A program made the position numbers and the translations under genes. DNA of 62,036 nucleotides, filler included, from Squatina squatina (lineage: Eukaryota): the NCBI GenBank assembly GCA_031763465.1. It is 3 parts of 3 records of this genome, joined end to end, with 100 filler letters (N's around TTAATTAATTAA, not from the genome) between each part and the next. Parts side by side here need not be neighbours in the genome. Positions count along the whole stretch, not along the records: positions 49,087 to 62,036 come from JARFOE010000234.1; 2 more parts are not named here. One strand, given 5' to 3'. Of this stretch, positions 52,801 through 57,560 are shown one piece after another. The notes below the pieces were generated by a model. The model was not told where the DNA came from. It saw nothing but the letters and a program-made list of their open reading frames with translations, and searched no databases. Positions within the stretch are counted from its first letter, which is position 1. Every line of letters starts with the position of its first letter.

Positions 52801-55517
52801 AGGGATAATTTTCTGCAACAATTCTCCCACTCATCCACCATAACCTCATCAGAAGAACCATGGGAACCCTAGAAGAATGACATAAACACACTTTATGCGT
52901 TTTTCCAGGGCTTCTGTAGCTCTATGACCGAAGTTATGGTGGATAATCAAAAGAACATCTGTGGAGAGTCACCCCTTAAAAGTCACAATTACAAAATCCA
53001 TGGCCGCAAAATTCGGTTCTGTAGCGCCTGTTGTTTACGCGCTATGGGTGCCGGCTTAGGTCCAAATCAGTGTACGCACACACATCTCTGGTGCGGGACG
53101 CGTCGGACGCCACCTTGGGCAGGTCATTAGCGCAGGCACAGGGGGCATGCACTGGAAGTATGCAGNNNNNNNNNNNNNNNNNNNNNNNNNNNNNNNNNNN
53201 NNNNNNNNNNNNNNNNNNNNNNNNNNNNNNNNNNNNNNNNNNNNNNNNNNNNNNNNNNNNNNNNNACTCTGAATTCTTGTACCTACCCCTCCTCCCTTCA
53301 CCCCTTCATTGGGAGCCACTTCTATAGCCGTCTAGGCCCTACGCTCTGGAATTCCTTCTTTAAACCGTACATTTCTCCACATACCTCTCCTTGAAGAACC
53401 TCCTTTGACCCATGACTTTGACCAAGCTTTTAGTCAACGCTCCTAAAAGCTTCTTCTCTGGTTGGGCAGTTGGGCATCCATTTTTGTCTGGTTACACTTG
53501 TGAAGTACCTTGGGACAGGATTTTACCTTAAAGGCACTAAATAAATGAAAGTTGTTGTCAAAACATGAAATTGGTGGTGAAGAAGAATAAGATGAAAGCA
53601 AAATTTTTGTTTTAAACGTTCTCCCATAAGAACATCTATTAGTTCATAAAAAGGTAAGCTATTTGAATTGTGCTTTCAATTTATCAGTTGCTCTATTCAG
53701 TTGTTGCATCATGATTTCAGCCAAGCATTAGTGTCCCGAGTTTGTATAAATTTCTGCATCATGAAAATGCTTAATTCAATTCTTTATTTATTTTCGAGCT
53801 GAAGTAAGATTGTATTTCATGTTCATAGTGGAAATGAAGAGAAATGAGTGAATTTTGTAAATCAGTTCATGCCTATGTTTTAAAAAAAATACTGAATTAT
53901 ATGCGATAAGTTGCTATTTGTCCTATGCTCAGATGACAACAAATAAATCAAATCATATGGTATTTTGATCCCTTTGACATTGCTTTCTGAAGGGACAGAC
54001 CTTTTAGTTCCTGATTTAGCAGGGAGTGGAGCGGTACAAAATGTCAGATGCTGGAGAGAAATGGGATTGCGCAAATAAGTCCTGAATGAAAGGTGGGGTA
54101 AGATGGATCTGCAGTCGACGAATCTTGAAATGATGTCCATTGAAAATACGATTTAAAAAAAAACCTGTTACTTAAGCAAGGATTTCACAATGTGTTTAAA
54201 TCCATTATAAAGTCGTGTAAAAACAAGCTATTAAACAGCATCCACAGAAATCAATACACTAATAACCAAAACTATGAAGTTAATGGTCTTGAGCCACAAT
54301 ATTTTGCCTAGAGGGAAAATTTACATTGTGTGTGCATTCCTAACAATGCTTTGGGGCTACACATGTCTTGCATAAACGTACTGCTTGCAGCTATGATTTG
54401 CATTCACTGTTAACAAAATGTAAACAATTCCCTTGTAGTTAGTATTGCAAGTATGACTGTCGTAAGTGAGATCTAATCTTTTTTCACTGCTAACCATATT
54501 GATTATTTTTGGCAGTTATTAAGCACTTTGGAGCTTACAAGAAAATTATACAAAAAGCTTGTTGCTATAAATCTTAATGCCATGTTTTACCATGTTAAAC
54601 ATGGGATTGTTTAATTCTGATCAATGTCGCATTCCTTATCCTAGTATGGAATAAAATCTAATACTTTATAGAAGTATTCAGTTTTTCCGCTCTTGCTTAA
54701 AATTTACAAATCAATATAACTGTGGAAGCACTACTGCAATCCATGAAACTCAGCTTAAATTTGTAGCTGTGTAATTCATGCTTAAATAATGTTACACATT
54801 CTTAAGGAAAAACAGTGTTAAAGTTTGCTAATTCATGCCTATCTAAGGTATTTGTGACAATAACTGGCAAACCTAGAAGGTGTNNNNNNNNNNNNNNNNN
54901 NNNNNNNNNNNNNNNNNNNNNNNNNNNNNNNNNNNNNNNNNNNNNNNNNNNNNNNNNNNNNNNNNNNNNNNNNNNNNNNNNNNCAAATGCATATTTCCTG
55001 ATGTATCCCAAAACACCACTATGGGATAATGGTAATATTCTGTTTGTATGTGGAGACTGAACTTCTTGAAGAGCATGCCTGTGGTAGACAAGCCAGTATT
55101 TAAGCTGATATCGTTTTGGCTAATTGTGTTAAAGCTGGGTGCTTCAAAGAGATTTAATATAATTATGTATACATTAACTATAGTACTTAATAAGCTCATA
55201 CAGTTTTTTCTGCTTCACAATATCAAGCCTGAGGTGATTTTGTCAGTAAGTATAACAATGTATTCATGAGATGATGTATCAATTAGAAAATATCATTTGA
55301 TTACTTGAGACAGCTTTTAACTTTATGGCCTCAAAAATGTTTTTACCCTTTTTATTCTTAAAGTTGAACTGTTTACCAGTTAGGTTTTATTCAGTCATGC
55401 AGATATGTAAAACTGCTTGTAAAATTAATTTAGTTCACTAGGATCTTTATTCTTGTTTTGTTTTTGATGTCTTTTGCTTGTGAAGAAGCTTAAAATGTGC
55501 TGCCTTCAAAGCAATGA

Positions 55518-56025
55518 ACAATAAAGATAGGAGTCGGCCATTCAACCCTTTGAGCCTGTTCGTCATTTAATCAGATAATGGCCGATCTTTACCTCAACTC
55601 AGTTTACCCACCTTTGTTCCATATCCTTTGATACCTTTACCCAACAAAAATCTATTGATCTCGGTCCTGAAAATTTCAATTGACCCAGCATCCACAGCCT
55701 TTTGAGGGAGCAATTTCCAGATTTGCACTAACCTTTATGTGAAAAAGTGCTTCCTTCTAAAAGGCCGAGTTCTAATTTTAAGATTATGCACTCTTGTTCT
55801 GAATTCTCCCACTGGAGAAAATAGTTCCTCTGTATCTACCCTATCGAATACTTTAATCATTTTAAATATCTTGATTAGATTATCCCTCAGTCTTGTAAAC
55901 TCAAGGGAATACAAGCCTTTCCTCATAATCTAACCCTTTAAGCCCTGACATTCTGATGAATCTGTGCTGTACTGCTTCCAAGGCCAATATCTCTTTCCTG
56001 AGATTCGGTGACCAAAACTGAACAA
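55518..56025 (-). mobile_element. CR1 LINE 3' end
   Basis: GLYSLEFTRLRDNLIKIFKMIKVFDRVDTEELFSPVGEFRTRVHNLKIRTRPFRRKHFFT plus 3' UTR. Confidence 0.9.
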
Positions 56026-56231
56026 TTGAAATTCATGTTCTGAAATTTGGCATTTTCTGTTTACAAATGCAAGATCTTAAAGCTAATTCTTATGTTTTCA
56101 GATACATTTGTTTGCAGTAGAAAGTTTTATGGGCCGTTACTTTTAACATTTTCCTTTGCATTTATTATTTTACTATGCACTCCAGTATAATTTTCAAAAA
56201 CCTTCTACTTTATTGCTTTTATTGAACTCAG

Positions 56232-56423
56232 GTGGATGCTTCAGAAGATGAACCAAAGAGCTTCATCTTTATGAGCGAAGATGCCATAGCAAACCCTGAC
56301 AAGTTGATGGTTCTGATTCACGGTAGTGGGGTTGTCCGGGTTGGACAGTGGGCCAGACGACTGATAATCAATGAAGACCTTGACAGTGGCACTCAAATTC
56401 CTTTCATTAAAAGGGCTATGGAC
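56232..56423 (+). CDS. FAM172A: FAM172A/ARB2A internal exon (Arb2 domain)
   Basis: CTCAG/GTAAGA-bounded 192-nt phase-0 exon: [64 protein letters not shown]. Confidence 0.95.
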
Positions 56424-56496
56424 GTAAGACTAATTTTCAGAAACTTGTTTCTGACTTTTCTGAATTTATTTAAATGTTTTCTTCTCCACTTTTGGA

Positions 56497-57560
56497 ACAT
56501 AGGAATGTGTAGTACCAGAAAAGATAATTTTAGTCCATCTGGATAGGTCCAGAGTTCAAAAGCAGAATATACAGTTCACTACCTGTAACTCTTAATTGAT
56601 TTTCTTGTCAAATGCTTGACCAGTTTCCTCTTAAAATAACTTGTGTTATCAGGCTCATTGCGAGAGGTTCAGGCGCTATACCCATAGAGGGGACGCGCCT
56701 AGTGTTTCAACGCACACGCCATGTTCATAGCAATAACTGTCCTGCAATTGGGGTGTTCAGTGTAGCTGACCGAATTACTAATGATATTCTCCAGGAAAAC
56801 CTTTAACACTCTGCAGGACTCCTTATAAATCAAGCCAGAGGTACGTTTAACATTACCACAACGATTCAGGTGGTGGATGGCTGGCTTGCTGATACCCCAG
56901 ATGTTATCTCTGAACACTTTGCAGTGACTCTTGGCTCCTCCTTTCTCCAGTCCCTTACCAGCTTTCATCCTACCATTCATTATCAGCATTCAAAATCAAA
57001 CCTCTGTCAAATCTCAATCACCTCTCATCCCAAATGTTCAGCACTCTTTTAATGAAATAGTTCTTTCTAATCTGTCTATTCTCCTTTCCTTCTCAGAGCT
57101 GCATCCTATTCCCCCTGGCCATTCTCAGGGTCATGATAAGCAGTTTCTCAGGTTTCAACATGTTGATACCCCTAGGGATCTTGAATACCTCAATAAGATC
57201 TTATCTTGGTGTCATCTGCTCTAGTGTAAACTTACTCAACTTTTGTAACGTCATTGTAGGCCAGATATTTGAAAGCAGGCAGCTTTTTGGTACACTTTTT
57301 CCGTGCTATGATGTCCTTTTAATAATGTGGCAAACAGAATTGCACATAGTATTCCAGGTGGGGTCAAATCTCGTGCCTTGTTAAGGCTCAATATCACATC
57401 CTGGGACGTGTGTTCTATGCATGTGCCATACAACTCAAGGCATATTTACCGCACCCACATGCTGTGCAGATGGTTTCAATAATATGTCCACCAATATCCC
57501 CAAATTGTTTTCCTGTGCGCCAAACTGCAGACATTTTTGTTCCAATTTTCCCCAGTTCCA
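56497..57560 (-). mobile_element. Old CR1 LINE 3' region interrupted by a histone H4 copy
   Basis: Minus strand ...DLIEVFKIPRG...IRKNYFIKRVLNIWD (to about 57024) resumes as EPDNTSYFKRKLVKHLTRKSIKSY (from about 56656), followed by a decayed 3' tail near 56497-56545. Confidence 0.75.
56669..56980 (-). pseudogene. H4: Histone H4 pseudogene, full length (104 codons with stop), one internal nonsense codon
   Basis: [102 protein letters not shown] aligns without gaps to canonical H4. Confidence 0.95.

Follow-up and report, generated by a model that had tools for sequence, protein, structure and literature searches.

A decayed, tailless histone H4 copy dividing an old CR1 element in a FAM172A/ARB2A intron of Squatina squatina, probably a retropseudogene

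The tailless retropseudogenes, as presented in the accessible part of PMC5322556 (Noll et al. 2015), include 51 copies derived from human histone mRNAs; the same part of that study reports the class from therians and the anole, and not from the chicken, which is rich in CR1, or the platypus. CR1 accounts for 21.78% of the whale shark genome and 18.75% of that of the white shark, and Tx1 and RTE elements are reported in the whale shark, but no full L1 (PMC8455134, in its available portion). The retrocopies counted in cartilaginous fishes amount to 14,081, and non-mammalian retrocopies have been attributed to CR1 or Tx1 (10.64898/2026.06.26.734816, in its available portion). In the literature searched, which did not extend to most subscription papers, no report of tailless histone retropseudogenes in sharks was found. 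The novelty of the locus described here is likely to be modest only, and consists in the appearance of the tailless class in a genome of the cartilaginous-fish type.

The locus lies in a window of 62,036 nucleotides of Squatina squatina DNA (the whole stretch analyzed, along which all the positions given here are counted). It consists of a CR1-H4-CR1 block running antisense in an intron of FAM172A/ARB2A, about 60 bases downstream of the Arb2 exon, positions 56560-57330 corresponding to bases 4926097-4926867 of contig C234. The exon (56232..56423, plus strand), bounded by AG and GT splice dinucleotides read from the sequence, matches the Arb2 domain (PF22749, E 2.7e-12), in agreement with the FAM172A intron named in an earlier note on this DNA. 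All the parts of the block are on the minus strand. Upon searching with nhmmer and a CR1 profile built from 38 copies from the genome, both flanks of the H4 insert were found to be co-linear pieces of one CR1: a 5' piece (57013..57390), which is a 5'-truncated ORF2 end (E 8e-48 over 57249-57013), and a 3' piece of this old element (56488..56661), comprising the end of ORF2 and the 3' UTR (E 1.8e-43, aligned over 56656-56488, with an envelope reaching 56660). The claimed co-orientation of H4 with the CR1 sequence on either side was borne out, and both flanks match the same profile, which also places them in one CR1 subfamily. The end of the 5' piece at 57390 is approximate; near 57363, this piece contains a PHLEY-VQF-type motif which is also present in other CR1 copies. 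The 3' piece shows 27 mismatches with the family majority at 161 non-CpG positions. At the CR1 3' end (56480-56499), organisms A-D, which are among those compared below, carry 43-56 other letters, and about 40 bases were likely lost here in the present genome. A younger, better-preserved CR1 3' fragment is located on the minus strand at 55500-56060, in the intron upstream of the Arb2 exon.

The H4 coding sequence (56669..56980) is full-length: the 312-nt frame running from 56980 to 56669 contains no indel, as the earlier note had observed, and in a comparison with H4 chains of solved structure it gave an E value of 4e-31. Its dead state was not mentioned there. Compared with a native gene of this genome, the copy shows 62% amino acid identity, a TAG stop at codon 94 and a dN of 0.24, and its differences from the native gene L002 amount to 40 codons with amino acid changes and 27 silent differences. 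Among three native H4 genes, by contrast, no more than 5-7 differences separate any two at the first and second positions of the codons. Out of 199 invariant first and second positions, 42 differ in the copy, and for at least 14 of these 42 differences the other organisms have the native base, among the 40 of 144 variants listed; up to 28 of the 42 changes may predate the split from these organisms. Neither a site-II nor a TATA motif was found upstream in the insert, both being present in all three native genes. The absence of poly(A) and stem-loop at the insert was confirmed: no poly(A) or oligo(A) tail is present, and the histone stem-loop carried by all three native genes, where it starts at +30, +34 and +56 nt past the stop codon, was not found downstream of the copy, the insert ending 7-8 nt past the stop. 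The decayed copy received no score in a Pfam search, and a search with the CENP-T_C family added little. As the conserved open frame, the promoter and the stem-loop of a functional H4 gene are all lacking at this locus, the copy is a dead pseudogene showing no sign of function.

The limits of the insert were originally placed at a pair of ATGAG motifs (CTCAT on the plus strand at 56654-56658 and 57024-57028). These motifs were found on the sequence as described, 365 bases apart. Joining CR1 across this pair does leave it 21 nt (7 codons) short of the family, as had been reported, and the fact that it rejoins in frame is likely to be coincidental; the shortfall corresponds to a 16-nt gap plus the 5-mer in 8 of 23 aligned CR1 loci, the rest giving gapped or one-sided matches. 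The profile extends the 5' CR1 piece across a 10-nt deletion, through GAGGTGATTGAG and as far as 57013, and thereby recovers the CR1 stretch which had been thought to be lacking. Since the score of this 13-nt extension was reached by only 21 of 5000 shuffles, 11 bases of what had been taken to be a 43-nt leader are likely to be CR1 sequence. On the other side, the 3' CR1 piece may begin at 56661, one base shorter than the same stretch of the family. CR1 overlaps itself across the insert: the 5' piece runs up to profile column 256, and the 3' piece starts again from column 254 (its envelope begins 4 bases earlier).

Judging from these alignments, the insert is probably flanked by a decayed 9-10 bp target-site duplication. 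The likely 5' copy is GGTGATTGAG (57013..57022), which is CR1 sequence inside the nhmmer match and just downstream of the 10-nt deletion; the likely 3' copy is GCAATGAG (56654..56661), in which one base is missing with respect to the family. The exact length of the duplication is uncertain because the 3' extension past the GAG does not reach significance by itself, its score being attained in 435 of 3000 shuffles. The insert would then measure about 351 bp, consisting of a 32-nt leader (56981..57012), which is likely an H4 5' UTR, the coding sequence, and a 7-nt trailer past the stop codon (56662..56668), which resembles the start of an H4 3' UTR, blastn homology to the native gene running to +8. 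At the first CpG of the repeat, one copy has TG and the other has CA, a split which would fit separate decay after the duplication. The ATGAG pair is therefore likely to be a by-product of two small deletions rather than the flank of the insert. The 9-10 bp reading involves an imperfect repeat and needs deletions of 10 nt and 1 nt, and an ungapped automatic repeat scan missed this pair, its best pair being a 7-mer equalled by 10 of 60 shuffles. Whichever way the boundaries are read, a CR1 deletion is required and a repeat is left flanking H4 alone. All the organisms compared have the 10-nt deletion next to the junction, and it may have arisen in the insertion event itself.

Sequencing runs matching the stretch numbered 22, none of them being listed as RNA, and 8 runs from seven organisms (A-G) were compared with it. 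CR1 was found to be joined to H4 at this site in all seven. In each of organisms A, B, C, and D, one contig bridges the two junctions and differs from the present sequence by 59-80 letters in some 700-800 bases; both junctions are covered on two contigs in organism E, and the 5' junction is covered in organism G. Organism F has kept the 5' junction, the 3' one having been removed by a 122-nt deletion (56653-56774). Runs X13 and X22, which are RNA by guess, were counted for the presence of the DNA sequence only, and skips of 489-623 bases were excluded, as they came from other CR1 copies with unread sequence in between. The junctions are therefore real, and the possibility of an assembly artefact is ruled out by the single contigs over both junctions in organisms A-D together with the data on E, F, and G. 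The TAG stop is missing in organisms A-D, where frameshifting indels occur instead, and the H4 frameshifts differ among organisms A/B, C, D, and F. The orthologous intron had been proposed as a place to look for CR1 with and without the insert: the joined form is present in all seven organisms, and no empty site, that is, CR1 without H4, was seen in any of them (8 runs), so that CR1 may or may not have preceded H4. The comparison of CR1 and H4 divergence, also suggested there, gave no difference in age, the non-CpG values being 77/398 in CR1 and 33/192 in H4 (Fisher p 0.57, indistinguishable), a result which is just as compatible with both having arrived in one event. As presence/absence characters, both the insertion and the 122-nt deletion of organism F can be used.

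The most probable explanation, in our opinion, is that a LINE enzyme placed a tailless H4 retropseudogene into a pre-existing CR1, and we hold this with fair rather than strong confidence. A LINE endonuclease would have made a staggered cut within the 3' region of a CR1 copy that was then young, and the freed DNA end would have served as primer for the reverse transcription of an H4 mRNA, starting about 7 nt past the stop codon. Priming of this kind would be internal or would occur on a 3'-trimmed mRNA, and would thus require neither poly(A) nor a stem-loop. Reverse transcription may then have continued until the capped end was reached, and repair would have duplicated 9-10 bp of CR1. The limits of the insert look mRNA-like in that the promoter and the stem-loop are missing; since H4 has no introns, the RNA step itself is one that we infer. 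By eye, a few bases at the junction are common to the H4 3' UTRs of the cluster type and to the CR1 target, which may point to some complementarity between target and RNA if the parent UTR was of that type. The candidate enzyme would be a LINE making duplications of this length, most likely of the Tx1/L1-like or RTE type, CR1 itself being possible. CR1 insertions usually leave short duplications or none. The A-rich L1 target consensus is absent, the target being G-rich CR1 ORF2 sequence, and this lowers the probability that the locus belongs to the therian, L1-driven form. With CR1 making up about one fifth of shark genomes, the choice of CR1 as the host of H4 is best attributed to chance.

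Ordinary retrocopying of a histone mRNA without poly(A) had not been expected in the earlier note. This expectation is contradicted by the tailless retropseudogenes, with their 51 human histone cases (PMC5322556, in its accessible part), and by a sibling H4 copy of the same genome, L038. Of the two origins put forward there, insertion into an existing CR1 fits our data, and capture by template switching of CR1 has no positive support. The suggestion of tailless histone retrocopies in a CR1-rich, L1-poor lineage raises the question as to which shark LINE copies non-polyadenylated mRNA.

A leader unrelated to H4 genes would have refuted the earlier reading, and this is not what was seen. The leader is matched by no intact H4 gene (L002, L003, L004, L035, and L037), the source gene not having been found intact in the assembly, and it resembles the sequence upstream of L038, a pseudogene. 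When the two are aligned on the ATG, 13 of 20 positions agree (shuffle p 0.0026), and 19 of 32 agree over a longer span (shuffle p 0.0003), nine loci having been compared; 13/20 is the fairer figure because part of the 19/32 match falls in the flanking repeat of L038 itself. A search based on L038 (6 matches) yielded no further member. In two of the three native H4 genes, a TATA-like box lies at -60/-61, which implies leaders of about 30 nt, and in the third it lies at -97, which implies a longer one. Over the first 8 bases, the trailer and the cluster-type H4 3' UTRs have 6 in common, and the agreement at coding sites is mixed between the cluster and the variant native genes.

No second locus with both junctions was found in DNA searches of the genome with the whole region and with the junctions: 1 of 1 and 1 of 7 junction matches span the junctions, at this locus only. 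An exact CR1 pattern search, with a single match, was uninformative. The assembly is fragmented (1,152,659 contigs), these searches score the best candidates only, and their sensitivity to old copies is limited, the DNA search from this locus having missed L038 and L039. A search at the protein level with H4 returned 21 matches among 27 candidates, namely five intact or contig-cut genes, the present locus, one spurious match, and 14 decayed pieces; L047, which has no DNA match to H4, was dropped from the H4 copies. In the flank comparison, none of the other 20 matches carried these CR1 flanks. Other histones gave 51 matches in the genome, 30 loci of which were fetched and 25 screened, and none of the latter has CR1 directly on both sides, in a screen which is weak, as the small CR1 library used covers part of CR1 and 3-10% of the local DNA.

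The clearest retrocopy of the set is L038 (579-822, contig C42231), a tailless H4 pseudogene cut inside the coding sequence, with no CR1 at its ends, a 20-nt leader resembling that of the present locus, and a 15-bp flanking repeat (13/15) located exactly at the 3' break (0 of 60 shuffles). L044 (655-866, contig C658626) is a 5'-truncated H4 which stops at the first bases of the stem-loop, and its A-rich flanking repeat (9/10, 2 of 60 shuffles) resembles an L1-type target. The flanking repeats of L008 and L043 were equalled in 3 and 6 of 60 shuffles, respectively, and those of the remaining siblings are at chance level or lost to contig ends. Only one of the 14 siblings therefore has a flanking repeat better than every shuffle, several contigs ending early. 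L040 reaches 90 nt past the stop codon, through the stem-loop. In L039 (1-280 and 281-440, contig C537034, minus strand), an L004-type H4 which begins at codon 17 and stops where the stem-loop would start follows a co-oriented CR1, joined at a different ORF2 position and with an H4 parent other than that of the present locus; a flanking repeat of 7/8 was seen by eye, and the contig ends seven bases later. An extra H4 fragment of about 40 nt is present in the same orientation at 645-685 of L039, about 350 bases upstream of the larger piece. In L046 (1-337, contig C351583, minus strand), about 66 nt of H4 are followed directly by a 5'-truncated, co-oriented CR1 (by eye), and this short contig may show either a chimera or a later CR1 insertion. 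In L042 and L043, it is CR1 that was inserted into H4 (by eye); in L042 (1-220, contig C584267), the CR1 is young, has a complete 3' end and lies within a cluster-type H4 coding sequence.

Several other histone genes were also observed. L003 (358-669) and L004 (149-460) are intact variant H4 genes with stem-loops, L004 showing I65 and S69 and L003 showing V54, S69, R79, and L84 (mature-protein numbering), which is unusual variation for so conserved a protein. L035 and L032 (contig C974949) form a close, divergent H3-H4 pair with codon use and UTRs unlike those of the other genes, and possibly come from an organism other than the host. L082, L083, L084, and L085 are H2B genes of divergent sequence, in which the stem-loop motifs are intact and the N-terminal tails are distinct.

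Among the alternatives, the block might be the product of a single insertion event in which the CR1 reverse transcriptase, having started on the RNA of CR1 itself, switched to an H4 mRNA close to the stop codon, followed it as far as the cap and returned to the CR1 RNA a few bases behind its previous position. The two flanks, which have the same orientation, are co-linear and belong to one CR1 subfamily, the equal age of CR1 and H4 (p 0.57), and the lack of an empty site in the seven organisms are all consistent with such an event; the CpG, intact when the duplication arose, implies that CR1 was young, the adjacent 10-nt deletion could be the scar of a jump, and a backward jump could also duplicate a few CR1 bases. 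A single switch by a CR1 reverse transcriptase has been proposed for PittSINE (PMC5729268, in its accessible part), and L039 and L046 likewise join H4 to a co-oriented CR1. Co-orientation of H4 with its flanks has a 50% chance under any model, and at least two co-oriented CR1 neighbors among 14 decayed H4 copies are unremarkable given the share of CR1 in shark genomes (p 0.42 at an assumed 10%), so that H4 pieces adjoin CR1 no more often than expected by chance. Two switches are required where one ordinary insertion suffices, the LINE/RNA chimeras described in the available part of 10.1101/2025.02.02.635956 carry the foreign RNA at the 5' side only, and the sibling L038, with its clear duplication, sits outside CR1. 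Since the flanks are of one subfamily, the junctions are real and the leader resembles that of another H4 copy, double template switching stands unrefuted and is only unnecessary; we regard it as unlikely. The more general proposal that a non-stringent CR1 reverse transcriptase of cartilaginous fishes captures non-polyadenylated histone mRNA by switching out and back, this locus, L039, and L046, whose H4 pieces adjoin co-oriented CR1 at differing points of ORF2, being records of a recurrent CR1-driven route to histone pseudogenes, appears to be quite doubtful.

The filling of a double-strand break in CR1 by an H4 cDNA or genomic fragment, through end joining and without any LINE endonuclease, would account for the imperfect flanking repeat, the adjacent 10-nt deletion and the 3' end lying within the UTR, the short duplication and the nearby deletion being scars of repair. 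An intronless gene offers no splice proof of an RNA step, and the fact that L040 extends past the stem-loop suggests that H4 fragments of DNA origin may exist in the genome. Against such a patch, the 5' end near the expected cap site and the missing promoter favor RNA, and the 8-15 bp duplications of the sibling copies resemble staggered LINE cuts; its probability is accordingly low. The histone-carrying CR1 subfamily envisaged in the earlier note, or a once-functional H4 retrogene, could be advocated on the grounds that the frame is indel-free here and its sole stop lineage-specific, so that the ancestral frame may have been open, and that the fragmented assembly limited the searches to the best candidates, but is very improbable and largely refuted by the single locus carrying both parts, by the decay, with up to 28 invariant-position changes already ancestral, and by the missing promoter.

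The locus resembles the tailless retropseudogenes (PMC5322556, as described in its accessible part) in that a non-polyadenylated RNA was apparently copied, histone mRNAs being included in that class, and in that the 3' truncation falls in a single-stranded region and is not followed by oligo(A). The flanking duplication is 8-30 nt long in that class, and probably 9-10 bp and decayed here. The tailless retropseudogenes depend on a relaxed L1 and an A-rich target (TT/WAAAAWW), whereas the target is not A-rich here; the 51 human histone cases are 5'-truncated, whereas the 5' end looks complete here; and the class was described in therians and the anole, whereas the present host genome is CR1-rich and of the shark type. 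With the U6/L1 chimeras (10.1101/2025.02.02.635956) and PittSINE (PMC5729268), as far as the available parts of these sources describe them, the locus shares a cellular RNA co-oriented with a LINE 3' piece; in those elements, the foreign RNA is at the 5' side, the LINE at the 3' side and the duplication around the whole unit, whereas LINE sequence is present here on both sides and the repeat flanks H4 alone. Unlike the typical retrocopy nested in an older transposon, the insert is here probably a copy of a histone mRNA and the two ages are indistinguishable, but the arrangement is that of such nesting, one repeat being halved co-linearly by an insert that probably came later and made a short duplication.
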